DNA of 64,000 bases from a virus. Taxonomy: Duplodnaviria; Heunggongvirae; Uroviricota; Caudoviricetes. How positions within the stretch are numbered: position 1 is the first letter of the stretch; the number at the start of each line of letters is the position of its first letter. Shown in pieces: positions 17,603-62,508 of this stretch. The stretch spans positions 5,058 to 69,057 of the IMG/VR virus record IMGVR_UViG_3300019845_000023; one strand, given 5' to 3'. The translations under genes were made by a program, and so were the position numbers. Below the pieces are notes generated by a model. It was not told the DNA's origin, did no database searches, and saw only the letters and a list, made by a program, of their open reading frames with translations.

Positions 17603-17649
17603 CTTTTCTATATATATTATAACATATTATATAAAAAAAGTCAAATTTT
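17603..17649 (-). promoter_or_regulatory. consensus promoter block
   Basis: same motif. Confidence 0.6.
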
Positions 17650-17651
17650 TA

Positions 17652-33372: not shown

Positions 33373-34305
33373 TTATCTGCTCTTAAGCATATCTCTTACG
33401 TATGTCATTGTAAGGCTACCGCAAATCTTACCAAAGTTCTCGCAAGCTGCGACTACCTCTGGCTCCTCCTTACGGCAATCCTCATACATCATCTTAGGAA
33501 GTACCTTTGCGATTGCTCCCATATCGTGCTCGTCCCAATCAGGTCTAAGCTGACCCTCATCGACAAGCTTCTGAAGACACTTCTCAGTTCTACGAGCAGT
33601 TGCAACACTTGCTATGTACTGTCTCTCAGCCTCTCTCTTCTTGAGCTCCTCTGGGTCTACAGGCTTGTGATGGTCCTGATGAACCTCGGAAAACTTCTCT
33701 GCGACAATCTTAAGGTATGAAGGAGTTCTGCTGTTCTTGTTGTCAAGTCTGTCCTGAGACTTAATAACGACGCCCTCACCACAAGGCTCTGCGCCGAGCA
33801 TAGACTGACCTACAAGCTGGTAAACAGTATCCCAACCTCTGAACTCACCTGTGTAGAAGATAGGAACAAAGTAGATTACCTGCTGAGTAAGCTGTACTGC
33901 GTTCTCAAGTCCCTTGAAGATTGCGTATGTGTCCTCGTGAGGGAGGTACTCCTCTGTCTGAGTATCCCATACGTCGAACATATAGAAGTTCTTGTATCTG
34001 TTCTCAGGGTACTTGATTGTATGCTTTGTAAGCCACTCGCCGAAGATTACATATCTGCCGTGCTGTGTAAGCATATCAATCTGAGAAACGTTGAGCTGCT
34101 GTGCCCAGTTCCAGAAACCGTTGAGTGTGTTAGCCTCATTAAGCTGGTTCTTACGAGAAAACGCAAGAACAGTATTTGTTGTGGGGTCATATGTGAATGA
34201 TGCATTTGAGCCGTCAACCTTCTCGGTAATCGTTACCTGCTCACCGAGTGAAAAGACGGTATCATACTTCTCCTTGAAACGCTCGATATCTACATACTTT
34301 TTCAT
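33373..34305 (-). CDS. RNA ligase 2-family (Rnl2-like) nick-sealing ligase
   Basis: motif I TEKVDGSN, FGEW (III), EGVVIK (IV), K.K (V). Confidence 0.7.
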   Translation of the reverse strand: MKKYVDIERFKEKYDTVFSLGEQVTITEKVDGSNASFTYDPTTNTVLAFSRKNQLNEANTLNGFWNWAQQLNVSQIDMLTQHGRYVIFGEWLTKHTIKYPENRYKNFYMFDVWDTQTEEYLPHEDTYAIFKGLENAVQLTQQVIYFVPIFYTGEFRGWDTVYQLVGQSMLGAEPCGEGVVIKSQDRLDNKNSRTPSYLKIVAEKFSEVHQDHHKPVDPEELKKREAERQYIASVATARRTEKCLQKLVDEGQLRPDWDEHDMGAIAKVLPKMMYEDCRKEEPEVVAACENFGKICGSLTMTYVRDMLKSR

Positions 34306-35741: not shown

Positions 35742-37148
35742 TCAATTTTCGCTGGGCTTTGCGCTTGAGTCCTTCTGGACGCCGAAGCCTTTCGCCATAA
35801 GCATTGCCATCAAAAAATCCTTATTGTCGCCGCCAGACTTATCGCTGAGCATAAGGAAAGGAAGCATTGCATTCATGTCCATTGTGCCGCCGTTAGCATT
35901 GTTCATCATAGAGAACATAAGCATAGAGCTCATATCTGTATTACCGTCGCTGAACATAAGGAAAGGAAGTATGTTGCCGAATGGATTCTCAGCATTTGCA
36001 TTTGTGCCGCCGAACATATCCATAGGTGTCATAATCTTAGTGTAGAAATCGAAACCGAAGATAGACTTCTTAGGTGCGAAAGTCTTGATTTCATTGCTCT
36101 TAGGCTCAACAGCAACGATAGCTGTCTTTGCGTTCTCCTTTACGACAAGAGGAGTTCTGTCAGCAGGGTGAAGGATTACATCACCAACTGCAAGCTGTGA
36201 CTTAGACACAGGCATTGCAAAGATAGGAATGTCCATTACCATATCAGATACATTGGTAAGTGAACCGTCCTCATTATATACGTTATATGTTACGCCGTCT
36301 TCTGCCTTAAAAGCGATACCGTTGAAAGAATACTTGATGGTATTTGTATCTACCTTACCGAACATAAAGTCGCCCATTAACTTTTTCATATTCATTGATT
36401 TTTCCTCCTTAATAACTTCTATACTTTTGCCATTTTTAAACACTATTTTAGGCTCTGAATTTACATCACTCAAAGAGAATGAATGTATTGCATCGCCTAT
36501 TGTTACTACGTCATCTTTCTTCACATAGAGTGAAGAAGGTTCGTATTTAACATATACTGGCTCACACTTTTTAATGTCGTAATCTATAATTTTAGACCAT
36601 GCGCCAAGTGCGCTAAGAGCCTCGAGTTTAGCAGGCATACACTTGTAATTAACGTCTCGAAATACTTCTAAGACCTGCATCCAGCTATCGCCATAAGGGT
36701 CTTTCTTAATTGTTCCCATAGACACGGAATCAACATCTGACAAATGCTGAGTTACACGAGCATTGGTCAATACCTTGATTTTGTCACCAACGGCTAAGCC
36801 ATTAAGTGTAGCAACTTCGTAGTAATAGACCTTTGCGTCAGGACTATAATTACCGTCTCTATTAGGGAAGATAGCTGCAATAAAATCGCCTTTAGCCATT
36901 TCTTCCTCCTTCTTTCCTGTTAATACTTCAAGATTAAAAGCTGGTGTGCTAAATGATACTGATATACTTTTATTGGTCTACCACGGCATTTCAAGCATAC
37001 CGCTGCAGGAACAAACTGAATCGTAAGAAGTCTCAACTTTTAGGTCTGAAACTTCCCCGAAGTCAATCTGAATTTTCTCGCCTTTTGAATTTGTGCCCCA
37101 ACCTATAAGTTTATAGGTCTATGGCATAGTAGGGTACTCACTGTACAT
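35742..37148 (-). CDS. hypothetical protein with Met-rich C-terminal repeats; N-terminal extension read through two in-frame TAG codons
   Basis: frame open from ATG 37148 (GGAGGA RBS) through TAG 37119-37121 and TAG 36978-36980 into the annotated MAKGD ORF. Confidence 0.45.
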
Positions 37149-37980
37149 TCTCATTCCTCCAGATTTCGTCGCTTAACGCACGCTTAATGATGAGGAATTT
37201 CTGCTCGTCCATACTGTCAAGAACAGACTGGTCAAAGTTTAGACCCTCTTCTCTGTACTTAGCGAGCCAAGCATCTGCCTCTTCAACGATACGCTTACCA
37301 AGGTCCTTAGCCTGAGCCGCAGAGTAGTTGATTTGTCTATCCTTAACACCAAGGATTTCACCCCAGTATCTCTGCATATTCAAGTCTGAACCCTTAAATG
37401 GGTTAAGAATGTACGCGTAGTCTTCCTGCTTAAATTTTGAAAGCATAGCAAGCAATCTCATTTCGTGAGAGAGCTGCTTTGAAGCATAACCGTACTTCTC
37501 GACTTCCTCGACCTGAACTGGATAAGGGTGGTCAAGAGCATTAAACTTTTCCTTAATCTGACCGACAATAGCCTTTAATGCAGACTCTTCATTTGCGTGT
37601 GCAATAGCGTCCCTATTAAGAATAAACCAGAACATAGGGCTGTAATCTGGATTTACCCAGAACCAGTCTGAGTAAAGAAGCTCAACAAAGTTTGAAGAAC
37701 CCTTCTTCCACTGGTCAACGATAAGACGAATGTCCTTAACATCGACCTGACCGTTGAAAGGCATTTCTTCAACATGGCTTACAGGCTTTGAGTTGAATAC
37801 AATATCCCTCAGTGAAGGAACGACAACTGCCTTGTAATCGTAGTCACTCTTAGGTCGTCTCAGATTGTAGTTCTGAGCACCGTATAGAGCGATAAAGATT
37901 ACATTAAAACCTCTTTTCTGAAGCTCCCTGACTGCAACGTGCATAAGCTCCTCTTCTGGCATTATCACTTTCTCGTCCAT
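37138..37980 (-). CDS. Pol-beta superfamily nucleotidyltransferase
   Basis: YGAQNYNLRRPKSDYDY = hG[GSA]x10SDhDh signature. Confidence 0.5.
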   Translation of the reverse strand: MDEKVIMPEEELMHVAVRELQKRGFNVIFIALYGAQNYNLRRPKSDYDYKAVVVPSLRDIVFNSKPVSHVEEMPFNGQVDVKDIRLIVDQWKKGSSNFVELLYSDWFWVNPDYSPMFWFILNRDAIAHANEESALKAIVGQIKEKFNALDHPYPVQVEEVEKYGYASKQLSHEMRLLAMLSKFKQEDYAYILNPFKGSDLNMQRYWGEILGVKDRQINYSAAQAKDLGKRIVEEADAWLAKYREEGLNFDQSVLDSMDEQKFLIIKRALSDEIWRNENVQ

Positions 37981-39967: not shown

Positions 39968-41431
39968 TTACTTCCAAGAATATACATCCTTAGAAAGTAT
40001 CTTGACCATAGCCTCATAAGCATTGCACTCGATGAGTTCTCTAAGGTCATTGAATGGACCTACACCAGAACCGCTGCAGTAACTGATGTTATCGTAGATA
40101 GTACCGATGTAGTTGTCCTGACGTGCCTCAACATTCCAGCTTACGACCTTAGTCTCAGGGAGACCAGCCTCGCGAAGCTTCTTGTTCCACTTACCGACAA
40201 TGGAGTCAGCAGTGTCTGGACGTACGTCGTAGTCGAACTGACCGTCTGATATAACTACAAGAGCCTTTGGAACCTCGCGGGTTCTTACAGCAGTCTTATA
40301 GATAAGCTCGAAAGCCTTATCAAGGTTAGTGTTGTAACCCATGTCAGTTGACATTACCTTTCTAAGACACTCCTCAAGTCCCCAGCTATCCTCGAGGGAT
40401 ATGAAGTGAGGATTGTTAGTGAATGTCATATAAAGGTTGTGGTATGCACCCTTATTACGCTGAGCGAAGTAAGTTGCAAGACCAACAGAAGTTGCCATAG
40501 GCTGACCTAACATGGAGCCAGATACATCTGCCATTACGACAACATCGTACTCTCCGCTAACGTAGTTAGGAAGAGCCTTCCACTGAGCTTCGTCTACAGG
40601 GTCAAGATGGTAACGAGAGCTACCATACATATACTTGTACACGATGTCGTATGGGTAAAGAGTAGAAGCATTTACCTTAGCCTCGCCCTTTTCAAGGGAA
40701 GCCTTGTAAGCTGCAAATCTCTCCTGACAACGCTTGTTGTAAGTCTTGATATATCTGCTCATTGCAACAGATGGAACAGACTGGAAGTCTATCTCATCCC
40801 ACTTACCAGCAGACATCTTTGTCTCGACGACGCCGATGTGTGCACGAAGCTTTGCAAGAGTCTTACGATATGTACGCTCGGTAAGACCGAGGTAACGACA
40901 AGCTCTACGACCAAGCTTACGAGTCTCCTGAGAAGAAGTATTGATAGATGGCATCCACTTAGCAAGGATGGAGATAGGCTGGTTCTTAGCCATACCCTCT
41001 GCATCAGCACGAAGCTGCTTGGAGATAAACTCCCATACCTTTGCCTCAATTACTGGATACTTTCCGTTAAGGAAGATGAAAAGGTCATCCCATCTACCTG
41101 TATCAACAATGGTCTGAAGATTGCGGACAATCTTCTGAGGGTCGATACGACCGAGTTCTGCAAGCAGAATACGACCGATACGTCTCTCACCAAGACCACA
41201 GTCTCTGATGTTACGAGCGTAAAGGATAAGGTTATCTGCAAGAGTAGGGTTCTCCTGTCTTGCTGCCTTCCAATCGCTGATTATAGCGGAAGCATCTCTC
41301 TTTCTCATACCACCTATCTTTGCATAGATGTCAAGAAGAGCGCCGCCGTTTGTTGAACTATATGCGAGTCCACCGTTTTCGGTAAGTGTCTGATTAGCCA
41401 TTGCCTTAGCTGCGTTTACGAAATTACTCAT
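39968..41431 (-). CDS. vWA-domain protein with large N-terminal domain (possible TROVE/Ro60-like)
   Basis: MIDAS motif DVSGSM; vWA fold at C-terminus; N-terminal helical domain; start at MSNF after GGAGAG RBS. Confidence 0.6.
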   Translation of the reverse strand: MSNFVNAAKAMANQTLTENGGLAYSSTNGGALLDIYAKIGGMRKRDASAIISDWKAARQENPTLADNLILYARNIRDCGLGERRIGRILLAELGRIDPQKIVRNLQTIVDTGRWDDLFIFLNGKYPVIEAKVWEFISKQLRADAEGMAKNQPISILAKWMPSINTSSQETRKLGRRACRYLGLTERTYRKTLAKLRAHIGVVETKMSAGKWDEIDFQSVPSVAMSRYIKTYNKRCQERFAAYKASLEKGEAKVNASTLYPYDIVYKYMYGSSRYHLDPVDEAQWKALPNYVSGEYDVVVMADVSGSMLGQPMATSVGLATYFAQRNKGAYHNLYMTFTNNPHFISLEDSWGLEECLRKVMSTDMGYNTNLDKAFELIYKTAVRTREVPKALVVISDGQFDYDVRPDTADSIVGKWNKKLREAGLPETKVVSWNVEARQDNYIGTIYDNISYCSGSGVGPFNDLRELIECNAYEAMVKILSKDVYSWK

Positions 41432-42462: not shown

Positions 42463-42620
42463 ATGCTGCCCGAGACAGGAATCGAACCGTTACCCTCCGC
42501 CTTCTTCAGGCGGCGTGCACACCTATGCACTACAAGGGCAGTCTGGTCGGGGAGGATGGGATTCGAACCCACACTCATCGTGCTCCTAACGCATTAATTG
42601 AGTAGCTGACGTATCTTTAT
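42463..42620 (-). other. two degenerate tRNA-like segments (G33 loop, broken T-stem; 3' half without partner)
   Basis: partial cloverleaf elements only. Confidence 0.3.
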
Positions 42621-42696
42621 TGGTGCCGAGGGGGAGAGTCGAACTCCCTACGCCAAGCTCTTCAGGCTTGCGCTCTACCAGTTGAGCTACCTCGGC
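42621..42696 (-). tRNA. tRNA-Phe (GAA), second copy
   Basis: perfect acceptor; loop CUGAAGA. Confidence 0.6.
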
Positions 42697-42720
42697 ATTA
42701 TCAAGACAGTTATACTTATA

Positions 42721-42828
42721 AACTCTACCCGTTGAGCTACGCGACGCGAACGCCACGGTGGGATTCGAACCCACATCCCCCTTTGTGCAAAAAAGAAAAA
42801 GTTTTAAGTGTTTTGCTGAACTGCCTTA
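42721..42828 (-). other. orphan tRNA 5' half next to orphan T-arm/acceptor fragment
   Basis: GCGUCGCGUAGCUCAACGGGUAGAGU then UUAUAAG...UGUCUUGAUAAU. Confidence 0.3.
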
Positions 42829-42829
42829 T

Positions 42830-42906
42830 TGGTCGGGGCGGTGGGATTCGAACCCACAGAATCGTGATTTTGAGTCACGCACGTTTACCAGTTACGTCAC
42901 GCCCCG
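42830..42906 (-). tRNA. class-I-shaped tRNA with Leu anticodon CAA
   Basis: 5-nt variable loop; loop CUCAAAA; A73. Confidence 0.5.
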
Positions 42907-43033
42907 ATATAAAATGCAAAATATGAAGAGGATACCACACCCTGCAGAGGCCCATATTTATTTATATCCCGCACCATAAGCTTCTTCGCGCTTCAATCCG
43001 TCGACTGTCCTCATGGCCATCCGTGCGGTTTTC

Positions 43034-43109
43034 TGGGTGGAAAGATGAGATTCGAACTCACACCTTCATGGGCCACAACCATGCGCTCTACCATTAAGCT
43101 ACTCACCAC
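43034..43109 (-). tRNA. tRNA-His (GTG) with encoded G-1
   Basis: loop UUGUGGC; C73; extra 5' G. Confidence 0.6.
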
Positions 43110-43143
43110 ATCAATTCCGACTTTAACCCAAGTCGGCAGGGTT

Positions 43144-43176
43144 AAATAAAACCAAATCTGCCTCCACACAGTGGAG
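43144..43176 (-). terminator. rho-independent terminator inside tRNA array 2
   Basis: CUCCAC-UGU-GUGGAG then GCAGAUUUGGUUUUAUUU. Confidence 0.45.
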
Positions 43177-43216
43177 TTAGCTGTAGACAATAGCACTGAA
43201 CATAACTATTCCTACT

Positions 43217-43292
43217 TGGTCTCGGTTATAGGACTCGAACCTATGACTTTCTCCTTGTAAGGGAGACACTCTCGCCGCTGAGTTAAACCGAG
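43217..43292 (-). tRNA. tRNA-Val (TAC)
   Basis: loop CUUACAA. Confidence 0.65.
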
Positions 43293-43321
43293 ATTATCAA
43301 GACTCTCTATACCTTGCGGTT

Positions 43322-43394
43322 CCGGAAGGGGGATTCGAACCCCCATATGTACGATTTTAGGTCGTATGACTTAGCCACTTTGTCTATTCTGGAA
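43322..43394 (-). tRNA. class-I-shaped tRNA with anticodon TAA and C33
   Basis: loop CCUAAAA; no encoded CCA. Confidence 0.4.
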
Positions 43395-43541
43395 AGGAAT
43401 ATTGCTGAAGAGTCTTTATTTGGTTCGGGTATGCTTATCGGAGTCAAGTACTCGCAGTTCCTCTTTCGAGGTATTTTCTTCGGAGTAAAGACCTTAAGGT
43501 TCGCGTAACCTCTCGTGCCCTAACCCATATCCGAAACCCGA

Positions 43542-43618
43542 TGGTGCCGTTAGAGGGACTCGAACCCACACTAACCAGTTCCTAAGACTGGCGCCTCTGC
43601 CAATTGGGCTATAACGGC
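43542..43618 (-). tRNA. class-I-shaped tRNA with Leu anticodon TAG
   Basis: perfect acceptor; loop CUUAGGA. Confidence 0.5.
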
Positions 43619-43682
43619 ATTGTTAAACAGTTCGAGTTACGGTCAAACTGAAGGTAAGCACCGATTAAGCAGCCAGATACTC

Positions 43683-43913
43683 CTATTCAGAATAATCAAG
43701 CTTTTCAATTCTTTTCATATCGGAATATGTAACCTGCTTCCAACCACTCTTAGGGTGGTTAAAGGCACACATCCAGCAGGAACAATGAATTTTACCTTTG
43801 GCTAACTTTCCGTCGCAATCACAAAACCAATGATGAGTTTCATCAATGATATGTCTTTTGCGAGCTATGTGTTGTCTTCTCTGATAACGATAGTATGCTC
43901 TATCTCTTTCCAT
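43683..43913 (-). CDS. Cys/His-rich small protein
   Basis: ORF track; embedded in tRNA array. Confidence 0.4.
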   Translation of the reverse strand: MERDRAYYRYQRRQHIARKRHIIDETHHWFCDCDGKLAKGKIHCSCWMCAFNHPKSGWKQVTYSDMKRIEKLDYSE

Positions 43914-44053
43914 TGTGCCGCCCTCCGAAAAATTATAATAACGAATATAGGCAACCCACTACTTACTTTCCTTACCAGCGTAAATTAAGCACCTTCGCTA
44001 CGTATTGCTACTACCTCAGTATTTAATTTACTATGCCCTTCCCTCGATATTCG

Positions 44054-44575
44054 TTACTTAGTAATTCTGTTTGCGATACCAGAAGCAGCGTAGCTGTCTG
44101 GCTTGATAGCAACCTCGAAGCCGCAAGTCTTAATCCAAGAGGTAATCTCAGTAATAAGCTGATTTGTCTTACCTGCGTGACCAATGTCAGCGTGGACAGC
44201 GAAAGTAAATCTTCCGTCATTAGACATTTGCTCAAGGTCAATATCATAGTCGATAAGAGCATAAGCAAGAGCATCTACGAAACCTGTTGCGTTCTCAATA
44301 GAACGAGAAGTCTCTTCCTGTATCTTAGTCTTAAGAACTCTTATCTTTGGTATATCTTGCTTGCGATAGAAGAAAATGCCGCCATCACCGATACGGTGAA
44401 CAGCAATTACTTCCACCATTCTTGTGCACTTGTGGTTCTGGCTATCTGTACCCACAGTTATTTCGTATGAGGCGTTAGGTGCCTTTGCGATGTAGTCGGC
44501 TACAATAGAGCCTATCTGTGAATAACGAACCTTCTCACCATTACCACGAGTAAATATCTTCTCGGTAATCACGGT
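44054..44575 (-). CDS. hypothetical protein (possible RNase H-like fold)
   Basis: ORF; probable GTG start after AAGGAG. Confidence 0.4.
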   Translation of the reverse strand, partial: TVITEKIFTRGNGEKVRYSQIGSIVADYIAKAPNASYEITVGTDSQNHKCTRMVEVIAVHRIGDGGIFFYRKQDIPKIRVLKTKIQEETSRSIENATGFVDALAYALIDYDIDLEQMSNDGRFTFAVHADIGHAGKTNQLITEITSWIKTCGFEVAIKPDSYAASGIANRITK

Positions 44576-44728
44576 TAATCTCTCCTTTATATTCAAATAT
44601 TCAAGACAGTTATGTTAGCTACCTTTTGATTAAAATTCAAATGCTTTTAAAGAATTGCTGGACTGTCTTAGTGGTGATAATACGTGCCGCGGCACCACAG
44701 ACCGCTATATGTGGTCGCACGTATTCTC

Positions 44729-44815
44729 TGGTCGGCTCGGTGGGACTCGAACCCACACGCCCTTGCGGGCACCAGCTCCTTAGGCTGGCGCGTCTGCCAA
44801 TTCCGCCACGAGCCG
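44729..44815 (-). tRNA. tRNA-Leu (AAG), class II
   Basis: long variable arm GCCC-UUGC-GGGC; loop CUAAGGA. Confidence 0.55.
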
Positions 44816-44883
44816 ATTTATCAAGACTCATCTTGTGTTTTTATATGCCCAAAAAACTTTCAGAGTTGCTGCTGAGTCTTATC

Positions 44884-44960
44884 TGGTCGGAGATGCGGGA
44901 CTCGAACCCACGGCCTCTCGCTCCCAAGGCGAGCGCTCTACCAAACTGAGCTAATCCCCG
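44884..44960 (-). tRNA. tRNA-Pro (TGG), second copy
   Basis: loop CUUGGGA. Confidence 0.6.
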
Positions 44961-45030
44961 ATTAATTGGCGGCTTCAGGGACGCTACAAGATAACCAACC
45001 GCCAGAGTTATCACGCACTTAATGTCCCAA

Positions 45031-45107
45031 TGGTCGGCGAGATGGGATTCGAACCCACACTGAATGGATTTTAAGTCCATTGCCTCTGCCTGTTGCGCTA
45101 CTCGCCG
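45031..45107 (-). tRNA. class-I-shaped tRNA with Leu anticodon TAA
   Basis: perfect acceptor; loop CUUAAAA. Confidence 0.5.
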
Positions 45108-45174
45108 ATAAGCCTATTAAATAGGCTACAAGATATAACCCCTTTTACCGCGGGGCAGTCTCCCCAATATAATT

Positions 45175-45227
45175 GGTTGGGGAGATAGGAATTGAACCTA
45201 CAAAAGTGAGTTGCTGATATATCTTAG
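45175..45227 (-). other. orphan tRNA 3' fragment (T-arm plus acceptor CUCCCCA-A-CCA)
   Basis: GUAGGUUCAAUUCCUAU T-arm without a 5' partner. Confidence 0.3.
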
Positions 45228-45303
45228 TGGTCACGCCAGCGAGGCTCGAACTCGCATTTTAGCCTTGAAAGAGCTACTTCCTACACCTGTTAGAAGATGG
45301 CGC
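45228..45303 (-). tRNA. tRNA-Glu (TTC)
   Basis: loop CUUUCAA; Glu-like D region. Confidence 0.5.
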
Positions 45304-45324
45304 GATTCATCAAGATGTGCTTTT

Positions 45325-45400
45325 ACCTCTCATGAGGATTTGAACCTTACCGTCCCCTTTTTGGGGCTGTGCTACCAGATTACACCATAACGCCGAGAGG
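45325..45400 (-). tRNA. tRNA-like gene with atypical anticodon arm (CCCC-AAAAA-GGGG)
   Basis: good acceptor and T-arm; anticodon not assignable. Confidence 0.35.
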
Positions 45401-45456
45401 ATTTAAAATGGCGGCGTTAAAAACTTTAAAGAAAAAGTTGCTGACACATCTTTATT

Positions 45457-45530
45457 TGGTTGCGCAGACAGGACTCGAACCTATATCAACGGATAATGAC
45501 TCCGTTATGCTACCTTTGCACTACCGCGCG
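45457..45530 (-). tRNA. tRNA-Met-like (CAT) with C1-A72 mismatch (initiator-like?)
   Basis: stem ACGGA/UCCGU; loop GUCAUUA. Confidence 0.45.
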
Positions 45531-45539
45531 TTCTCTTTA

Positions 45540-45587
45540 TTTTCTATAATTATTATAGCATAAATTATAAAAAATGTCAAATTTTTG
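45540..45587 (-). promoter_or_regulatory. promoter block TTGACA-17-TATAAT within tRNA array
   Basis: AAATTTGACATTTTTTATAATTTATGCTATAAT. Confidence 0.6.
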
Positions 45588-46381
45588 ATTTCTAAGTCAT
45601 TTCGTAAGCACTCTCACCGCGTGAAGGTAGACTTAATTGAGAGTATTTCTTCAACAATCTTGGGTGCCGCCACATCTCCTGCACACAGGAGACAGGGTAC
45701 TCGAACCCCTCCATCGCCAGTTGCTGAAAGGAATTTCAACCTAATCTCATTAGTTATAAAGCCACTGAGCTGTAGCTATGCGAATAATTTGCCGCAATCA
45801 ACGGGCGACTATTCTAATCGCCGTCATAACCAACACAAGTTATGAACCATTGTAATGTCGTCAGGTTCCCACACTTACGCAGTAAACGCGCCGCTTAACC
45901 ACTTGGTTTAGGTATGTTCATAACCAAGAAATTTTCCCTTTTACATCGTCAGCAGTAGATGTCGTAATTTTATCGGTACTTCCCCGAATGGACATTGCGT
46001 GCCTATCGTACTCACGGTAATGTACGTAACCGCTGCCGTGCCAGCCAATACACGGATTTATACTGCCATCACACAGTCGGGCAGGTCTGTGATGGGTCTC
46101 TGCCCAATTTGGTTTTTGTGGTTTTAAACAGTCCAATGAGTAAACCTCAACTCAACTGTAGAGAATATTTGGTGGTTCGCTCTCTCTCAGCGAAGGTGTA
46201 AAGGGAGTTTAAACCACTTCCTCGTGGGGTTTTAACGTCTTTTCCTTGACAAGTCTCGCCGCAACCAGTACCATTTAAGGTACGCCAATCACTACGGGTT
46301 GCACATCCTTACTTTACCTGCCCAACAGGTCGGCGGTTGGACCCGCCAGTGTCCCTTTTATTCTCTTTAAGTAATTGGCAA

Positions 46382-46456
46382 TGGTGTGGGATAGGAGAAT
46401 CGAACTCCCACCGCCTGTTTGGAAGACAGGAATACTGACCGTTATACGAATCCCAC
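46382..46456 (-). tRNA. tRNA-Gly (TCC)
   Basis: perfect acceptor; loop CUUCCAA. Confidence 0.7.
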
Positions 46457-46469
46457 ATTAGTTCTTATT

Positions 46470-46518
46470 TTTAAGTATAATTTATTATAACATATTCTAA
46501 GAAAAAAGTCAAATTTTT
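46470..46518 (-). promoter_or_regulatory. promoter block variant within tRNA array
   Basis: TTGACT-17-TATAAT. Confidence 0.55.
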
Positions 46519-46528
46519 AATAGTGATT

Positions 46529-46654
46529 GTCTTTGTAGGGGTCTGTCTTCTTCTTATCATGGGTTGCGGCGATGATGTCTGGCATAACCTCTATGAGCTT
46601 CCAAAGAAGTACGGTTACGCAAACAACTATTAGGTACTGCATCAGACAGACCTC
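46529..46654 (-). CDS. small membrane peptide (41 aa)
   Basis: hand translation; AAGGAGG RBS. Confidence 0.35.
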
Positions 46655-46666
46655 CTTTCAAGACAT

Positions 46667-46743
46667 TGGTTTCTCCGCTTGGATTCGAACCAAGGAATGG
46701 CAGTTTTAGAGACTGCTGTCTTAAGCCTCTTGACGACGGAGAA
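46667..46743 (-). tRNA. amber suppressor tRNA (anticodon CTA), Glu/Gln-type body
   Basis: perfect acceptor UUCUCCG/CGGAGAA; stem GCAGU/ACUGC; loop CUCUAAA; D-arm UCGUCAAGAGGCUUAAGACA. Confidence 0.65.
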
Positions 46744-46747
46744 TTAT

Positions 46748-46822
46748 GGTTGCCGCTCTGGGAATCGAACCCAGTAAGACGGAGTTAGAGTCCGTTGTCC
46801 TCGCCAACTAAACGAAGCGGCA
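46748..46822 (-). tRNA. amber suppressor tRNA (anticodon CTA), Glu-type body
   Basis: perfect acceptor UGCCGCU/AGCGGCA; stem ACGGA/UCCGU; loop CUCUAAC. Confidence 0.65.
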
Positions 46823-46907
46823 AAATTCTCCAAGACGCCTTTACATTTACCTTTTAAACATTTTAAGTGTTCTATTGTAAGAAATGATTGCAGGATGCGT
46901 CTTTCAT

Positions 46908-46955
46908 TCTTATAAAATAATTATAACATATTTTATAAAAATTGTCAAATTTTTG
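46908..46955 (-). promoter_or_regulatory. promoter block variant
   Basis: TTGACA...TATAAT. Confidence 0.5.
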
Positions 46956-46963
46956 AGTGCTTA

Positions 46964-47227
46964 TTAGTCTACAGCAGTTGTAGTAGTTGTCTCTGTTGTA
47001 GTCTCTTCTGCCTCAGTTTCTGTGGTAGTAGTTGTTTCTTCGGTAGCCTCAGTTGTCTCCTCTGCTACTGTTGTAGCTTCAGTTGTTTCAGCTTCTGTTG
47101 TTTCAACTTCTGTTGTAACTACTGTTGTGGTTTCACTGTTGCTTCCGCTATCCTTTGATGTATCGCAAGAAACAAAAGTTACAGCCATAGCGCCTGCCAT
47201 AAGACAAGCTAAAATAGCCTTCTTCAT
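46964..47227 (-). CDS. Thr/Glu-rich lipoprotein
   Basis: signal peptide with lipobox-like Cys. Confidence 0.5.
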   Translation of the reverse strand: MKKAILACLMAGAMAVTFVSCDTSKDSGSNSETTTVVTTEVETTEAETTEATTVAEETTEATEETTTTTETEAEETTTETTTTTAVD

Positions 47228-47580
47228 TGTGTTTCACCTCTTTGCTTTTTAAATAAGAACCCTTGCTTGTATATCGAAACCTCGTATTATATCCACAGTC
47301 ACATCGTGATTTACTCCCACACAAGAGGGCTACCATGGAGAAGGGGCACGCCCCGAGATGGGCGGCAATAATCATAGAACGCTATACGAAAAGCATAACG
47401 TACTAAGGAACTCTTTCCACACGTGGTGGATGAGCTATCGTATTTCTACGACCCCGCACAGCGGGTAGAAGTCATAATGACCTCTTAACAGTAATTTTGA
47501 TTGAGCCGCGTTTCCTCTTTTAAGTCTGACTAACTGCGGTAAAAAATCCAGACTTCAAAATTACTTTTAAGAAATCATTA

Positions 47581-47675
47581 TGGCGCGGTCGGGGAGACTC
47601 GAACTCCCACACCGATTGCTCGATTACTCATAGTTTAGCAAACTACTGCCTTACCAAATTAGGCTTACGACCGCA
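47581..47675 (-). tRNA. tRNA-Ser (GCT), class II
   Basis: perfect acceptor; loop UUGCUAA; long variable arm. Confidence 0.55.
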
Positions 47676-47807
47676 TTATCAAGATACGTTTTTTCGATAT
47701 ACGTTGTTCTACCAGTTGAACTACTCCGCCATATTGGCGACGGAGGCAGGACTTGAACCTACACCTACGGCGTGATAGGCAATCTATTGCTTGCTGACGT
47801 ATCTTAG
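47676..47807 (-). other. orphan tRNA 5' half with leader module plus orphan 3' fragment
   Basis: GGCGGAGUAGUUCAACUGGUAGAAC...AAAAAACGUAUCUUGAUAAU; T-arm GUAGGUUCAAGUCCUGC. Confidence 0.35.
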
Positions 47808-47809
47808 TT

Positions 47810-47887
47810 TGGTGTGCCTGATGGGACTCGAACCCATGACCCCCTGATTAAAAGTCAGGTGTTCTATGCCAACTGAACTACAGGCAC
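47810..47887 (-). tRNA. tRNA-Lys (TTT)
   Basis: perfect acceptor; loop CUUUUAA. Confidence 0.7.
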
Positions 47888-47986
47888 ATTAACATCCGCT
47901 GAGCATCTTATTGGAACGCTTTCACCATGCGAGACCTCTATTGTTTATTTGCTGGCAGAATTTGAACCATTAACCATAGCGAATAT

Positions 47987-48062
47987 TTGGTGGGACGCCT
48001 GAGATTCGAACTCAGATAAGCTCGGTTATGAGCCGAGTGCACTAACCATTGTACTAACGTCC
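47987..48062 (-). tRNA. tRNA-Ile2/Met (CAT), Ile-derived body
   Basis: anticodon arm CUCGG-CUCAUAA-CCGAG parallels tRNA-Ile(GAT) at 5981. Confidence 0.55.
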
Positions 48063-48119
48063 CATTAAAGAAAGGAAAGGGGCATACTTTCAAGATGGCT
48101 ATGCCAGACCACTAAGTTA

Positions 48120-48193
48120 TTGGCTTCGGCAAAGGGAGTCGAACCCCTATCAACAGAGCCAAAATCTGTTGTCCTACCATTAGACGATACCGA
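48120..48193 (-). tRNA. tRNA-Gln (TTG)
   Basis: loop UUUUGGC; D region shared with Gln(CTG) at 4532. Confidence 0.6.
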
Positions 48194-48222
48194 AATCTAT
48201 GGAGTCATAAAGACTCCAAATA

Positions 48223-48582: not shown

Positions 48583-48637
48583 TTTCTCACCTCACTATAA
48601 ATATTATATCATATTTTATTTAAAAAGTCAAATTTTT
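48583..48637 (-). promoter_or_regulatory. promoter block variant
   Basis: TTGACT...TGATATAAT. Confidence 0.55.
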
Positions 48638-50046: not shown

Positions 50047-50093
50047 TTTTCTATAAATATTATATAATAATATTTTTAAAAAGTCAAATTTTT
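50047..50093 (-). promoter_or_regulatory. consensus promoter block
   Basis: same motif. Confidence 0.55.
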
Positions 50094-50121
50094 AATCATA
50101 ATATTCCGTTGCAAATTTATC

Positions 50122-50685
50122 CTATTCATTTTCCAGCCACTCTTTTGTCTGTGCTTTATGGATATAATCCAGCACTTCATTACAAATACGAGTGTATCCT
50201 TCTTCAGTACCGTCCATTATCCAGTAGTAAATATCGTGGCTTTCAAGGAATTTCTTTATTCTGACATCAATCTCTTTCGCTTCTTCCTCTGTCTGATTCC
50301 TGCCAACAGGATTGTAAGGCTTTTTTCGATTGATAAAAAAGTTAATGTTATCATAAGTATTAAACACATCCATTACTAAATGTTCGTAGTGCGGGCCCAA
50401 GACTGGGTTCTGATTATAAAATACGCCGAGCGGCAATGGGCTATCTGTGATGATAACATCCACCTGGTCGCGGCACCTGTCCATTTTATAGGACTGTTTA
50501 CCGAAAACATATTCCTGACATCTTAATGCTGAATAGTTCTTCTCCCAAGTTTTATCCTTAGCAAACTCAGTTATCAACTCGCAATTAACACCTTTCATCT
50601 TTAATTGACTAAAAATAAAAGCTGCCGCCGTAGACTTTCCTGCACCGGGGCCTGCAAATAAGTTTATGACTATTGGCTTCTTCAT
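50122..50685 (-). CDS. P-loop kinase (dNMP/nucleoside kinase-like)
   Basis: GPGAGKST Walker A. Confidence 0.5.
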   Translation of the reverse strand: MKKPIVINLFAGPGAGKSTAAAFIFSQLKMKGVNCELITEFAKDKTWEKNYSALRCQEYVFGKQSYKMDRCRDQVDVIITDSPLPLGVFYNQNPVLGPHYEHLVMDVFNTYDNINFFINRKKPYNPVGRNQTEEEAKEIDVRIKKFLESHDIYYWIMDGTEEGYTRICNEVLDYIHKAQTKEWLENE

Positions 50686-51396: not shown

Positions 51397-52320
51397 TTAG
51401 TGCGCCGCCTTATCAGCTTCGTGAAGACGCTCAAGGTCACGCATAAAGTCTGCACTATAACGAGCTGCCATCTTCTCCATATACTTCTCGCCCTTGTAGT
51501 GGTCCATATGGTGGTTGATTAAAAGAACGATATAGTGATTACGGTCAGAGCAACCAGTATGAGATAAGTAGAAGTATGCTCCTACATTCTCATGGTTATA
51601 GAAGTGTGCCTCTTCTGTAGGGTTGTTGCGAGCGTCGTGATAAACCTTGCAGTAAGGCTTACCAATATCGTGGAAGAGTGCCGCAGTTCTTACTAAGTCA
51701 GAACGAGTTGAGTCTCTTACTGTCTTATTCATCTCGTCAACGATATACTTCTCTGCCGCTCTCATATGTGCGCCGATAGTTAAAGAGTGGTGATGATTAT
51801 CGTGAGGGATATTATCAGCTTCGAAAAGCATTTCTCCTATTACATCGAAGTTATTATCATTACCGAAAGTCATTATCTTATCCCAACCCTCAGAGTAGTC
51901 AGGTACCTCGAAGCTTCTAAGCATACGGTCGAGAACGAACTCAGGAACGACACGCTCACGGGAAGCATTACGCTCCTTTACAACCTCGAAAGGAGGTACG
52001 CAAAGAACGCATATCTTTACAAGGTCAGGTATCTTAGATAACTCCTTTAAGAAGCCTATACGACGCTTAGCATTGACGTTTGTTGCGTCATAGTAAACAT
52101 CGACATTAGCCTTTAAAAGGTCGCGAGTACGAGTTAACATTAAGTTGAATACTTCTGCGTTATGAGTCTGGTCATTAACGTCTCCAAATACGTCCTGCCG
52201 TATCTGGTCAGAAGATACATAAGCTGCTTCAGAGAAGTAAGCCTTATATAAAGTAGACTTACCAGAGCCAGGGAGTCCTACAGTGAAAAATAATCTTGGC
52301 ATATTTAGTCTCCTTTCCAT
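51397..52320 (-). CDS. polynucleotide kinase fused to an HD phosphohydrolase
   Basis: N-terminus LFFTVGLPGSGKST...SSDQIRQDVFG matches T4 Pnk kinase; C-terminal H..HD motifs. Confidence 0.65.
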   Translation of the reverse strand: MERRLNMPRLFFTVGLPGSGKSTLYKAYFSEAAYVSSDQIRQDVFGDVNDQTHNAEVFNLMLTRTRDLLKANVDVYYDATNVNAKRRIGFLKELSKIPDLVKICVLCVPPFEVVKERNASRERVVPEFVLDRMLRSFEVPDYSEGWDKIMTFGNDNNFDVIGEMLFEADNIPHDNHHHSLTIGAHMRAAEKYIVDEMNKTVRDSTRSDLVRTAALFHDIGKPYCKVYHDARNNPTEEAHFYNHENVGAYFYLSHTGCSDRNHYIVLLINHHMDHYKGEKYMEKMAARYSADFMRDLERLHEADKAAH

Positions 52321-55369: not shown

Positions 55370-55395
55370 TTCTTAAATCAGTTTTCATTTGCTTC

Positions 55396-55710
55396 CTAAT
55401 TAGAAGTATCTTCGGCAGGCGTTGCTTCTGAGAAATTAAGGAAGAGACTGTCGTCAATACAATTGACTATTTTTGTAACTCTACCTCCCTCATCTACATC
55501 AAACTGAACAACCTGTCCATTGAGGTTTTCCCAGTTTGGTGTGTCTGCCGCCTGAAGGATACCTGCGATTCCATTTAAGTCTTGTATTATAATTGGACCT
55601 ACGGGATAATGCTGCTCTTTAGTTGCAACTACAAGCTATACTCCCATTACCCATTCGTCACCGTTCTTTGCAAGTCCAAGATATGTACCAGTAATCTTAC
55701 CATTCATCAT
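55396..55710 (-). CDS. hypothetical protein read through an in-frame TAG at codon 25
   Basis: ATG 55710 with AAGGAGG RBS; TAG 55636-55638; 80 further sense codons with no internal start; terminal TAG 55396. Confidence 0.45.
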
Positions 55711-56825: not shown

Positions 56826-56872
56826 TTTGATATAAAAATTATATCATAAAAGAAAGGGAAAGTCAAATAATT
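56826..56872 (-). promoter_or_regulatory. weak promoter variant
   Basis: TTGACT...TATAAT-like. Confidence 0.35.
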
Positions 56873-56874
56873 GA

Positions 56875-57906
56875 TTATCCCTTTCTGATGTTATATCCAT
56901 ACTGGTCGGAGTGATAAAATTCTATCCAGTATTTTTCTTTTTCGGTCTGTTCTTCTTTTGGGCAAACCTCTACGATTTCCCAAGTGAAGTTCTCCAAACC
57001 TTCTTTGAACATAGCGTCATAGATTTGACCAGCTATTCGTTCAATATTACAGCCGCGCTTAGCATGGGTACGCCAACGGTCTATAAACTTTGTTGTTTTA
57101 CCAATATAAACTTTTTCATCATTTATATTAGTAATCTTATAAATGCCGCCCTTATCTTTCTTGTCACCAAGAACTCGTTTAAAGAGCTCCTCTATTTGAG
57201 TTTTATAGTAAGTCTCATATAGGAGTTTATAAAAGATTTCTGGACGGGAGAAGCCAGGTGCCATAGACTTTAACTTAGCTATATCTGAAAGAGTTAAAGT
57301 ATCGAGAGTAATGTGATAGAAGTCGCGTTGCTTACGAACTTCCTCATCTTTCTTAAACTAAGCTACGATTGCCGCCTGTCTTTGTTCAAAGGCTTTAATT
57401 TCTTCAGTCAACGCCGCCTTTTTCAAATTTATTTCGTCGCTGAACGTCTAAAAATTTACAGCCAACTGCTCCTTATCTTTCTCATATTGAGCCTGAACAC
57501 CAGCTATCTTCTTTTCTCGTTCTGCTGTCGCCGCGGCAACGATTTCAGCATTTTCTTTTTGACGCTCAAGTTCAGCTTCCCTATCCATTTTAGCATACTC
57601 TTCACGAGTTGCTATATATTGTGCGTCAAGTCTTTGTACATCGGTATTATATTGAGCTTTCTTCTCTTCGAGCATACAGGTGTATTCTCTTAATGATGCC
57701 TGTTTTCCTGCAATCTCCTTTTGGATTTCATCCGTCATTTCCTTGACGGCGGCATCTTTCTTCTCAATAAGTCCTTTCTTAACTTTCTCCTATTCGGAAG
57801 AAAACTTTAGCTTACCTTTAAGAGACTTAACCGATAGAATATCGCAGACGGCATATGTAATGCCGCCACACACGATACCAAGTAATATGACCAATATCCA
57901 TATCAT
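56875..57906 (-). CDS. TM helix, coiled coil and GIY-YIG nuclease fusion read through three in-frame TAG codons
   Basis: ATGA overlap at 57906; TAGs at 57790-57792, 57448-57450, 57358-57360; no TAA/TGA over 344 codons; GIYKITN..YIGKT motif in C-terminal part. Confidence 0.5.
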
Positions 57907-58232
57907 TCAGTATTCACCCCTGAAGCTAAATCAATTCCCACTATAAATGGATATTGAGCAGATAGATTATAACCATGTCCATCTTTACATTGGGAGTTAA
58001 ATTTCTTGATATAAAAACTACGCCACTCATTTAATTTTTCGTTTGGAAATTCTCCTATTATATAAAATAGAAAATTCTCTTTCCCATACTTTTCCATTTC
58101 GTTGAGAAGTAAAGGATTTTCTTTTATTTCTTCTTTAATATAATGGCGATATATGATTTTAGGACTTTCAATTGTTTTACCCACATATATCTTTCCATTA
58201 ATTAAATTTTTAAGATAGTATAAGTATCCCAT
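57903..58232 (-). CDS. GIY-YIG homing-endonuclease-like protein
   Basis: YLYYLKNLINGKIYVGKT. Confidence 0.6.
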   Translation of the reverse strand: MGYLYYLKNLINGKIYVGKTIESPKIIYRHYIKEEIKENPLLLNEMEKYGKENFLFYIIGEFPNEKLNEWRSFYIKKFNSQCKDGHGYNLSAQYPFIVGIDLASGVNTE

Positions 58233-59053
58233 TACTCCATTTCAGCTCCACAGTCTGGGCAGTACTTAGTTTTCTCCTGAAATGCTCCTTCACATTCTGA
58301 ACACCAGTAATATGTACACATACCACTTGGAGTACTATCGTGCATTTTAGCCCATTCATATACATCTATCCAGCGACCCTTTGGACGCCAAGTAAATTCC
58401 TTAATAGGCTTATGTCTACCGCAGCAATCCTTTGCGCTTTCTGGACAAGCCTTAATCTGTCCTGCTTCACACTTAGGCACAAGAACAGTAGAAAGTATTG
58501 CCTTTTCTTCATCAGAAATCTGTCGTGCCGCCAAGACCTCTCTTGTCATACCATTGGCAACCTCATGGATTTCCTTTGAAGCTCTGCTACACATACGCTC
58601 ATTACAGAAGTGCATAAACGCTCTTAAATTAAAAGTAATATAGATTACTGTTGGAGTAGCATTAGGAAGAACGTCACGAGCATCTTCGGTTCTTACTCCT
58701 TTACCAATCATTAGTTTATACTCAGCAAGAGCATTGTCGCAGTAATAACTGAGTTCTTCTTTAAGTTCTGCTGGTACTCCATCTAATGCCCAGTCTAAAT
58801 CATCGTAAGTTACATAGCGCTGAGACTGTTGTGAATATGAAGCGATTCTATGTCTTACAATCTGATGAGAACAAACTCTTGAAATTCCTTCTACCCTAAA
58901 AGTAAATGAGCAATGTTCAAGAACAGAATGATGCCCCGAACGAATACAACCCTTTATAACATTAAGGTCAGGTTCACTATCATAACAAGCTGCTGCCGCC
59001 TCAGCACAAACATATAACGGATTAGGTGTATATCCTACAAGTGTTACTTTCAT
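58232..59053 (-). CDS. thyX: FAD-dependent thymidylate synthase ThyX with Cys-rich C-terminal extension
   Basis: RHRIASYSQQSQRY = ThyX RHRx7S motif. Confidence 0.7.
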   Translation of the reverse strand: MKVTLVGYTPNPLYVCAEAAAACYDSEPDLNVIKGCIRSGHHSVLEHCSFTFRVEGISRVCSHQIVRHRIASYSQQSQRYVTYDDLDWALDGVPAELKEELSYYCDNALAEYKLMIGKGVRTEDARDVLPNATPTVIYITFNLRAFMHFCNERMCSRASKEIHEVANGMTREVLAARQISDEEKAILSTVLVPKCEAGQIKACPESAKDCCGRHKPIKEFTWRPKGRWIDVYEWAKMHDSTPSGMCTYYWCSECEGAFQEKTKYCPDCGAEME

Positions 59054-59644: not shown

Positions 59645-59687
59645 TTTATTAAATTATAACACAAATATTTTAAAAAGTCAAATAATT
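59645..59687 (-). promoter_or_regulatory. weak promoter variant
   Basis: TTGACT...TAATTT. Confidence 0.3.
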
Positions 59688-59821: not shown

Positions 59822-60322
59822 TTAGATAGTGCGGAAGTGGTTATATTTTCCATCTCCCCACCATTGGTTGCAAGTCCAGCCTGCAAATGTGTCGGGGTTG
59901 TTAAAGTAATAATCTACAGCGTCTGCCATCGCTGAGTAATGGATTGAGCCGCCGCAGAAATAATCTGAATATTTATTAAATCCCCAAGGAGCACAAGTCT
60001 GGTCGAGTACTGCTTCAACCGAACCAGGCCAACGAGAATCATTTACCATATTCATTACTGAAGCTACGATTTTTGCTCTTTCGTAGACATCAGGCATTCC
60101 ACCGTATTCACTTGCGACAATCTTGCAAAGCAATGTGTAATCATAATCGCTAACTACAGGAGCGGTTGCATTGCTTACATACGGATTTACTATTTCTAAA
60201 TTTGGATTACATTCGCTACATTTTCTACACTCAATATCGTTTGTATCTGTGATTTCATAACAAGTTGAATCAACCCAGTGACAAGTTGACTTATGTATAT
60301 AGTGTGTACTTGGTTTGTACAC
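59822..60322 (-). CDS. SleB-like cell-wall hydrolase (candidate lysin)
   Basis: Cys-rich N-terminus; RWPGSVEAVL..QF..W motif. Confidence 0.4.
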   Translation of the reverse strand: MYKPSTHYIHKSTCHWVDSTCYEITDTNDIECRKCSECNPNLEIVNPYVSNATAPVVSDYDYTLLCKIVASEYGGMPDVYERAKIVASVMNMVNDSRWPGSVEAVLDQTCAPWGFNKYSDYFCGGSIHYSAMADAVDYYFNNPDTFAGWTCNQWWGDGKYNHFRTI

Positions 60323-60346
60323 TGTGTACTCTCTTGGTGTCTCTGC

Positions 60347-60757
60347 CTATGTTGGTGCCGCTTCAGTAACTTCGGCAGTTGTTACTGGTGCCGCCGGCTC
60401 AGTTTCTTCAACTGAGGAAGTGGATGTGCTTGTGAGTGTTGTAGTTGTGGATGTGCTTGTGAGCGAAGTTGTGGATGTGCTTGTGGTTGTAGTTGAGGTA
60501 ACAGTGGTAGCTGTTGTGACTGGAGTTGTTGTAACTACTGTTGTAGTTGTTGACTCAGTTATTTCAGTAACCATTGCCGCCTTTACTGGCAGGTTTGTGC
60601 CGTGAGCTTTGTCAGTTCTTACCACGGTAGGTGTCGCTAAACAAAGCACGACAGCAGCTGCAAGAACTGCTGTCGCAACCTGAATTGTTCTTTTTACAGT
60701 TATTTTCATTATAAATTCCTCCTTTTCGTCCTTGCGGACTATGAGGGGAACACGCAT
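60347..60757 (-). CDS. Thr-rich secreted (mucin-like) protein
   Basis: signal peptide; (T/S/V) repeats. Confidence 0.45.
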   Translation of the reverse strand: MRVPLIVRKDEKEEFIMKITVKRTIQVATAVLAAAVVLCLATPTVVRTDKAHGTNLPVKAAMVTEITESTTTTVVTTTPVTTATTVTSTTTTSTSTTSLTSTSTTTTLTSTSTSSVEETEPAAPVTTAEVTEAAPT

Positions 60758-62469: not shown

Positions 62470-62508
62470 AAACATTATACCACAAGAAAAAGAAAAAGTC
62501 AATCATTT
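62470..62508 (-). promoter_or_regulatory. weak promoter variant; -35 lies inside a terminator hairpin
   Basis: TTGACT...TATAAT-like. Confidence 0.3.

Follow-up and report, generated by a model that had tools for sequence, protein, structure and literature searches.

Several groups of gut phages, among them crAss-like, Lak, Jade, Sapphire, Garnet and phAss-1, read the amber codon TAG as glutamine (Gln), a variant of the genetic code known as code 15 (bioRxiv 10.1101/2021.08.26.457843; PMC9523058; PMC10607447). Such recoding relies on suppressor tRNAs supplied by the phage, and lysis genes are preferentially recoded (bioRxiv 10.1101/2021.08.26.457843, PMC9523058, PMC10607447). Borges et al. found recoded stops in 26-71% of genes, concentrated in late genes and differing between close relatives; in one clade, the Agate phages, a group I intron endonuclease is preferentially recoded, for which delayed production was proposed (bioRxiv 10.1101/2021.08.26.457843). 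The code was confirmed by metaproteomics by Peters et al. (PMC9523058). A second pertinent system is bacterial: SNIPE, also called PD-lambda-1, is a GIY-YIG nuclease of the inner membrane that cuts phage DNA as it is being injected (Nature 2026, PMC13190303), and its membrane tether keeps the nuclease off the resident chromosome (PMC13190303). Here, a phage gene with features of both systems is described. It lies in a 64,000-nucleotide stretch of caudoviricete DNA, hereafter the window (positions 5,058 to 69,057 of IMG/VR record IMGVR_UViG_3300019845_000023), and its 344-codon frame, interrupted by three TAGs (TAG1 to TAG3), is a single functional gene for a GIY-YIG nuclease. We put at roughly 90% the probability of the explanation as a whole, namely that this is one intact gene whose TAGs are recoded by means of the phage's own suppressor tRNAs, probably as Gln. 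Because recoding of this kind is already known, the novelty is modest; what is new here is the over-use of TAG by the nuclease family and its SNIPE-like layout.

The window phage resembles the code-15 phages in several respects. TAG occurs in frame in conserved genes with Gln as its best match, two tRNA-Sup(CUA) genes stand in tandem as in phAss-1, only a minority of genes is recoded, the pattern varies between close relatives, and the host is apparently a Firmicute that uses the standard code. The preferential recoding of a nuclease gene likewise recalls the group I intron endonuclease of the Agate phages. In contrast to the known code-15 phages, the recoded genes of the window are neither structural nor lysis genes, and are found in an early-looking region of nucleotide-metabolism genes and tRNAs behind putative host-type promoters. 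No close nucleotide relative was found among 50,697 deposited phage records, which gave short irrelevant matches only, and the best protein match to a deposited phage is to phAss-1, at 40% identity over just the C-terminal 40%.

The frame had been picked out from the DNA letters alone, and this sequence-only reading proved accurate in almost every particular. From an ATG at 57906-57904 to a closing TAA at 56877-56875 on the minus strand, the frame contains no TAA or TGA, and all three TAGs are where they had been reported (Table 1). The start codon overlaps, as ATGA, the TGA of an upstream 109-amino-acid (aa) GIY-YIG open reading frame (ORF), again as described. The assertion that so long an open frame is unlikely to arise by chance is borne out by calculation: at a per-codon probability of TAA or TGA of 0.054, taken from the base composition of the region itself, 342 codons lacking both have P = 6.6e-9, and none of 20,000 shuffles was as open. 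The other five frames of the same stretch hold 6-38 TAA or TGA codons each. Only the description of the DNA as AT-rich was overstated, since a G+C content of about 38-39% makes the AT-richness moderate; the chance argument still holds. Absent from that reading were the amber-suppressor tRNAs that the phage carries about 10 kilobases (kb) downstream and the link to the TAG-to-Gln recoding already described in phages.

The relatives of the gene provide the principal evidence for its integrity. A search covering a 5.8-billion-protein collection returned at least 300 matches to the target protein, and most among the matches listed are 330-368 aa long and span the whole query. The homologues have a common layout of 340-350 aa, with an N-terminal transmembrane helix, a long helix and an I-TevI-type GIY-YIG domain, and the conserved blocks of their alignment run uninterrupted through all three TAG positions. 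Because the proteins in this collection had been called with a TAG-to-Gln table, the DNA of the homologues was fetched. At the DNA level, 22 of 61 family members are free of TAG; among the rest the number of TAGs reaches 18, with the frame otherwise open. TAG-bearing orthologues come from independent samples at 97, 87, 78, 70, 70 and 63% identity; the recurrence of the same TAGs in independent assemblies from different samples means that they are not sequencing errors. One syntenic orthologue at 68% identity (L088; related loci are numbered in this way) has no TAG at all and can be translated under the standard code. The immediate neighbourhood is constant in close relatives and comprises thyX, the target gene and a metallophosphatase gene.

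The frame is also under purifying constraint on either side of its TAGs. The ratio of nonsynonymous to synonymous substitution (dN/dS) was estimated by the Nei-Gojobori method between the window and seven orthologues, separately for the segments before, between and after the TAGs. Values of 0.0-0.34 were obtained for every TAG-bounded segment in nearly all of these comparisons, with dS often >1; the sole exception, 0.80, concerns the 38-codon transmembrane segment against the most distant orthologue. The nuclease domain, which lies 3' of all TAGs, is the most constrained part (0.01-0.06). Codon-usage scoring supports the two long segments and is uninformative for those of 38 and 29 codons. It is therefore scarcely credible that a once-intact nuclease gene is decaying here after three nonsense mutations. 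Such decay would account for three premature stops under the standard code, and the adjacent 109-aa GIY-YIG ORF truly is a degraded remnant; but the frame has no frameshift, TAA or TGA, both flanks of every TAG are constrained, and TAG1 and TAG2 are retained in orthologues whose synonymous sites are saturated. Suppressor tRNAs are present, other genes of the window show the same pattern, and the frames of relatives with up to 18 TAGs are still open.

Alternatively, the TAGs could end separate small genes, one for a membrane peptide of 38 aa, one for a coiled-coil protein and one for a GIY-YIG nuclease that stands alone, and code 11 does yield ORFs with positive coding scores at 57448-57738 and 56875-57264. 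Restarts after the TAGs fail to explain the conservation, because conserved residues precede the first available ATGs. The first in-frame ATG comes 18 codons after TAG1 and 32 codons after TAG3, and the 29 conserved codons after TAG2 contain no Met. Invariant or near-invariant residues (L46, K49 and K50; F152-I180; F184-K213) fall between the TAGs and the next starts and would thus go untranslated; for instance, the conserved block EKVKKGLIEKKDA, with the invariant K49, follows TAG1 ahead of any in-frame ATG. TAG-free homologues are one continuous protein of equal length, the TAG positions differ between close relatives, and no homologue shows independent genes terminating at the TAGs, so that a set of separate genes is hardly tenable. 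The two checks that had been proposed along with the frame, a search for sense codons at these positions in homologues and an analysis of conservation across them, both favour read-through into one fused protein: the first found CAG, TCA, TTG, CAA and CGT opposite the three TAGs of the target, and the second is the dN/dS result given above.

The residue inserted at TAG is best judged from a codon alignment of eight close orthologues, which was preferred because the 61-sequence family alignment (826 columns) is poor in the coiled coil and carries a weak Gln-versus-Glu signal from distant relatives. Thirteen columns of the close alignment contain at least one TAG, at positions that vary between relatives, and Gln (CAG or CAA) is the most frequent of the non-TAG entries in these columns (28 of 74). 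Two TAG columns are Gln in all seven other sequences, and one of these holds the Q of the conserved nuclease-domain motif SDQYGYN. In the family at large, four TAGs fall in the sole fully conserved Gln column, the top rate of any residue class. Opposite TAG2, more distant homologues show Q, L, F, D or E, and opposite TAG3 mostly R or Q. TAG is reassigned to an amino acid in this gene, most probably glutamine, in the pattern that NCBI lists as code 15.

Two amber-suppressor tRNAs, SupA and SupB, most likely provide this decoding. The 17-nucleotide anticodon arm of SupB, with G36 replacing A36, is found in 66 IMG/VR tRNAs, all of which are called tRNA-Gln(CUG). The anticodon loop of SupA, CUCUAAA, is one base apart from the CUCUGAA of the tRNA-Gln(CUG) in the window. 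Both candidates have U1:A72 and UCGU at positions 8-11, as do the two tRNA-Gln genes of the window. The U1:A72 pair marks tRNA-Gln against tRNA-Glu for GatCAB and GlnRS. Charging with Gln would be consistent with these features. SupA orthologues of 91-92% identity occur on two IMG/VR contigs (L110 and L112), and L110 shares its 186-kb contig with a member of the target family that has six TAGs (L004). The program ARAGORN labelled both tRNAs as 'Pyl', an assignment that was rejected since it reflects the CUA anticodon alone; both belong to the ordinary class I and show Gln-type features, and TAG aligns with Gln or Glu. Genes of the pyl type were not noticed in the window, which was not scanned exhaustively for domains. 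In phAss-1 (L086, OQ749652.1), two tRNA-Sup(CUA) genes are likewise adjacent (4812-4977), and one of them is 88 nucleotides long; this implies a long variable arm of the Leu, Ser or Tyr type, so phage amber suppressors need not all be Gln-derived.

Recoding extends to other genes of the window. Gene calling with TAG as sense gave 104 minus-strand genes, which contain 14 in-frame TAGs and are closed by TAA in 80 cases and by TGA in 24. For the 110-aa neighbour gene, TAG is kept in four to six orthologues and replaced by Q, S, A or K in the rest, and the tail past TAG105 is conserved, also in orthologues without that TAG. The protein of the cell-wall-hydrolase-like gene is continuous in six orthologues, which match Hydrolase_2 and dockerin families. 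The TAG of the AAA_28 ATPase gene aligns with Tyr in L081 and L083, and beyond it the tail DKFATEYYD is conserved. In all three genes, some positions that are Gln in the window are TAG in relatives. Four TAGs of the window stand 11 codons or fewer ahead of a TAA or TGA, and one of them is demonstrably sense. The other three, in the minus-strand genes 11612-11917, 12887-13636 and 43665-43913, are 1-11 codons away from the TAA or TGA, and no relatives were available for comparison.

A number of observations weigh against the reading of TAG as Gln throughout. Glu (GAA or GAG) comes second opposite TAG in the close set (19 of 74 cells), and in the distant set Gln (enrichment 2.05) is barely ahead of Glu (1.85), owing to the poor alignment of the coiled coil. 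One TAG, in the AAA_28 gene, aligns with Tyr, and TAG2 aligns with Leu in the TAG-free L088. SupA is likened to tRNA-Gln by shared features only, without an isotype model, and the TAGs of the three genes just mentioned might act as stops with a nearby back-up. Judged from sequence, Gln is the best-supported identity of the inserted residue. Decoding as something else, be it Glu through a non-discriminating GluRS and failed amidation, two amino acids or pyrrolysine, seems quite improbable. It would fit the ARAGORN label, the near-equal enrichment of Glu, the Tyr alignment and the fact that SupA and SupB are just 66% identical; yet the label follows from the anticodon, both tRNAs score 53-55 bits with the general tRNA model and have U1:A72, the SupB arm is that of tRNA-Gln(CUG) genes, fully conserved Gln columns take TAG at the top rate, and exchange between Q and E is common in coiled coils anyway.

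Table 1. Positions of the target gene, its parts and other features of the window.
Feature	Position	Strand	Description
Target gene	56875..57906	-	343 codons + TAA; predicted membrane-anchored coiled-coil GIY-YIG nuclease; 3 in-frame TAG sense codons
TAG1 (codon 39)	57790..57792	-	boundary of transmembrane helix and long helix; TAG in 6/8 close orthologues, replaced by CAG (Gln) in L088 and by TCA (Ser) in L089
TAG2 (codon 153)	57448..57450	-	TAG in 7/8 orthologues, TTG (Leu) in L088
TAG3 (codon 183)	57358..57360	-	TAG in 5/8 orthologues; CAA in L090, CAG in L088, CGT (Arg) in L084
N-terminal transmembrane helix (about aa 2-24)	57835..57903	-	Kyte-Doolittle 19-residue mean 2.46; no Lys or Arg in residues 1-24
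Long alpha-helix/coiled-coil stalk (aa 37-192)	57331..57798	-	predicted local distance difference test (pLDDT) about 90; contains all three TAGs
Two-helix module before the nuclease (aa 203-249)	57160..57300	-	invariant D208, L212, K227, Y234
I-TevI-type GIY-YIG domain (aa 252-339)	56890..57153	-	catalytic set complete
Upstream 109-aa GIY-YIG ORF	57903..58232	-	homing-endonuclease remnant fused in frame to a displaced thyX tail
Promoter-like TTGACT-17-TATAAT	59653..59681	-	heads the four-gene unit ending with the target; putative promoter
Example promoter-like sites	249-277, 5237-5265, 46484-46512, 48603-48631, 56838-56866, 59653-59681, 62474-62502	-	
tRNA(CUA) SupB	46747..46822	-	putative amber suppressor, apparently derived from tRNA-Gln(CUG); Rfam tRNA 53 bits
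tRNA(CUA) SupA	46667..46743	-	putative second amber suppressor, Gln-like acceptor stem and D arm; 55 bits
110-aa neighbour gene	55378..55710	-	in-frame TAGs at codons 25 and 105, read as sense
Cell-wall-hydrolase-like gene	59822..60757	-	one in-frame TAG (codon 137), in Thr/Ser-rich linker
AAA_28 ATPase gene	50092..50685	-	TAG at codon 188/197, read through

The product had been proposed to consist of a transmembrane helix, a coiled coil and a C-terminal GIY-YIG domain, and hydropathy, the long helix in the AlphaFold2 model and the Pfam GIY-YIG match agree with this. AlphaFold2 (mean pLDDT 86) places helices at residues 2-30 and 37-192, two helices at 203-249 and an alpha/beta domain at 254-336. 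Seven Lys or Arg residues fall within residues 25-45, directly past the hydrophobic segment, and by the positive-inside rule the N-terminus is therefore predicted to be outside and the remainder cytoplasmic. The stalk gives weak profile matches to long helices of the apolipoprotein and ATP-synthase-b type, and the two-helix module matches no Pfam family, DUF4041 included. Searches with the N-terminal 250 residues against Pfam, NCBIfam, PHROGs and PADLOC gave coiled-coil noise and weak UzuA matches only, and structure searches of PDB and BFVD found the GIY-YIG domain only, besides two unnamed full-length viral look-alikes. The nuclease domain itself matches Pfam PF01541 at residues 252-333 (E 9e-10, 39 bits; cut-off 22.6), TIGR01453 (70.8 bits; cut-off 56.05) and a PDB profile (E 3e-9). 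Foldseek aligned it with I-TevI (1mk0/1ln0) at a TM-score of 0.79 and 33% identity, and the invariant Y256, Y267, R277, H281, E324 and N339 align on Y6, Y17, R27, H31, E75 and N90 of I-TevI. The product is thus predicted to carry a catalytically complete, cytoplasm-facing nuclease domain of the I-TevI type.

The catalytic domain resembles I-TevI and the GIY-YIG homing endonucleases (TIGR01453, PF01541) in sequence, fold and catalytic residues. Unlike in I-TevI, it is C-terminal rather than N-terminal, and a transmembrane helix, a 155-residue helix and the two-helix module replace the linker and DNA-binding domain. The possibility of a mobile homing endonuclease was considered and rejected: NUMOD, zinc-finger and helix-turn-helix modules were not found in the target, and the gene sits at the same position in all eight close relatives (8/8), a fixed location which shows that it is not mobile. 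The ORF between thyX and the target is, unlike the target, sporadic.

The overall arrangement is closer to that of SNIPE, with a single-pass N-terminal transmembrane segment (N out), a cytoplasmic helical middle and a C-terminal GIY-YIG domain, all of which are predictions only for the target. In contrast to SNIPE, the target is carried by large phages and not by bacterial chromosomes. DUF4041 (PF13250) and T5orf172 gave no match in 62 family members at E<=1, and PADLOC reported no PD-Lambda-1 match, only homing-endonuclease matches and weak ones to UzuA (1.3e-4, 3e-3); no description of UzuA or Uzume domains was found in the literature. Membership of the target family in SNIPE was accordingly discarded, being unsupported because DUF4041 is not detectable in any of the 62 members and the PD-Lambda-1 model finds no match. 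By analogy, the target could still be a phage-borne counterpart of SNIPE, tethered by its long stalk to the inner membrane face, with which a resident large phage would cut the DNA of competing phages on entry, effecting superinfection exclusion, and spare its own replicating genome, the synthesis of the nuclease being locked behind suppressor tRNAs. We regard this as rather unlikely. If it were true, a toxic enzyme would be made only in code-switched cells and could never be expressed after escape to a standard-code genome.

The target is the last gene of a four-gene unit that comprises a 185-aa ORF, thyX, the endonuclease remnant and the target itself. A terminator-like hairpin and a TTGACT-17-TATAAT site precede the unit, and another such site comes right after the target stop. 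Across the window, TTGACT-N17-TATAAT occurs in 28 exact copies, all on the minus (coding) strand, against 0.03 expected by chance; the extended consensus is TTGACTTTTTTTATAAAATATGATATAAT, with a TG-extended -10 element, and the copies near the target are intergenic. The 28 sites look like a dense set of strong host-type promoters, some of them within or ahead of tRNA arrays. Within the unit, the tail of the 109-aa ORF, YPFIVGIDLASGVNTE, represents the last 16-17 or so codons of the other thyX allele and agrees with its C-terminus as seen in L081 (QYPFIVGVDLAPEVNTE). In L087 the position of this ORF is taken by a full 263-aa endonuclease; in L081 and L084 there is no endonuclease. The thyX alleles found at one position in L081, L083, L084, L087-L090 and the window (58232-59053, minus strand) are of two very different kinds, a pattern that suggests replacement of alleles, driven by the endonuclease, beside the target.

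A mechanism for the expression of the gene can be proposed. Once the suppressor tRNAs had been made and charged by the host Gln pathway, ribosomes would read through the three TAGs to yield a 343-residue protein. Before a suppressor tRNA became available, translation would stop at codon 39 and only a 38-residue membrane peptide would be released. With three TAGs in series, full-length output would depend steeply on the suppressor level, and the TAGs may serve as a translational lock that delays or limits a potentially toxic nuclease. The family also over-uses TAG. Pooled over 40 TAG-using loci, TAG/(TAG+CAG+CAA) is 0.25 in the gene and 0.10 in the 10-kb flanks, an excess of about 2.5 times, with a higher value in the gene than in the flanks at 30 of 40 loci (Wilcoxon p 1.5e-6, sign test p 0.001), a statistic built on crude gene calls and phylogenetically non-independent loci. 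Several loci have 7-10 TAGs in the gene and 0-2 in the flanks. In the window itself, the ratio of TAG to CAG or CAA is 3 to 16 for the target and 11 to 433 for the remaining genes (p 0.016), and the TAGs of family genes are skewed to the 5' part (p 4e-6).

The idea of a lock has its difficulties as well. The 5' bias could stem from faster turnover in the variable coiled coil, and the window has no structural or lysis genes with which the target could be compared. The same promoter motif stands ahead of the target operon and of the tRNA block that contains the suppressors, so expression of both may fall in a single phase; a delay, if there is one, would then appear to come from tRNA accumulation and not from a separate transcriptional phase. 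Gln codons in the target are CAA 10 times and CAG 6 times, compared with 150 CAG and 24 CAA in the long genes of the window, a preference that hints at a different expression class or evolutionary history.

Read-through might also be programmed to remain partial, with the truncated 38-aa transmembrane peptide and stalks of 152 and 182 aa as the main outputs. Three serial TAGs would multiply any inefficiency, TAG1 lies exactly at the end of the transmembrane helix and is kept in most close orthologues, and the TAGs of the family are 5'-biased. A scan of the window for the GGQ motif gave no ORF resembling a release factor, and with no phage gene seen, host RF1 would compete for TAG. The strong constraint on the nuclease domain, however, means that useful amounts of it must be produced, TAG-free relatives make the full-length form only, and none of the 104 genes called with TAG as sense ends at TAG, with one near-end TAG clearly sense. 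Truncated products as the chief output are thus unlikely, and the full-length nuclease, made from a recoded gene, remains the preferred account.

The remainder of the window is phage-like and consists almost wholly of minus-strand genes; a UvrD-type helicase gene, thyX and a metallophosphatase gene lie near the target. It carries 44 tRNA genes in two arrays (2884-8918 and 42465-48194), which cover most amino acids and duplicate several isoacceptors, as well as a transfer-messenger RNA with the tag peptide ADYAIAA (12482-12827, minus strand). Among the tRNA arrays are minus-strand RNA-repair genes (39968-41431, 33373-34305, 18261-19391, 51397-52320 and 37138-37980), a set that includes an RtcB-like protein (phrog_850), two RNA ligases, a polynucleotide kinase/HD phosphatase and a nucleotidyltransferase. 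This toolkit suggests a defence of phage tRNAs from host anticodon nucleases. A 525-aa ORF (31200-32777, minus strand) has an N-terminal membrane segment followed by a very long Ala/Glu/Lys-rich helix, appears flotillin/SPFH-like by eye and has no PHROG match. The plus strand is almost empty except for a 335-codon frame (16715-17722) antisense to a 282-codon minus-strand ORF (16733-17581).

The distribution of the family gives some indication of its hosts. In a collection of species genomes, full-length relatives occur only on contigs of 140-185 kb from metagenome-assembled genomes binned with Ruminococcus, Oscillospiraceae and similar taxa, and dockerin domains are found in neighbouring orthologous genes. 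Together, the binning and the dockerin domains point to large phages of gut or rumen Firmicutes. For this lineage, annotation under the standard code would fragment the conserved nuclease gene along with three or more of its neighbours. The window is a further, well-documented case of TAG-to-Gln recoding, in a large phage of Firmicute-like hosts that is rich in tRNAs and carries two different suppressors. A second outcome is a widespread and as yet unnamed phage family that combines a membrane anchor, a long stalk and an I-TevI-type nuclease. This family is among the most amber-loaded genes in recoded relatives, making it a good test case for whether a change of code can gate the production of dangerous proteins.

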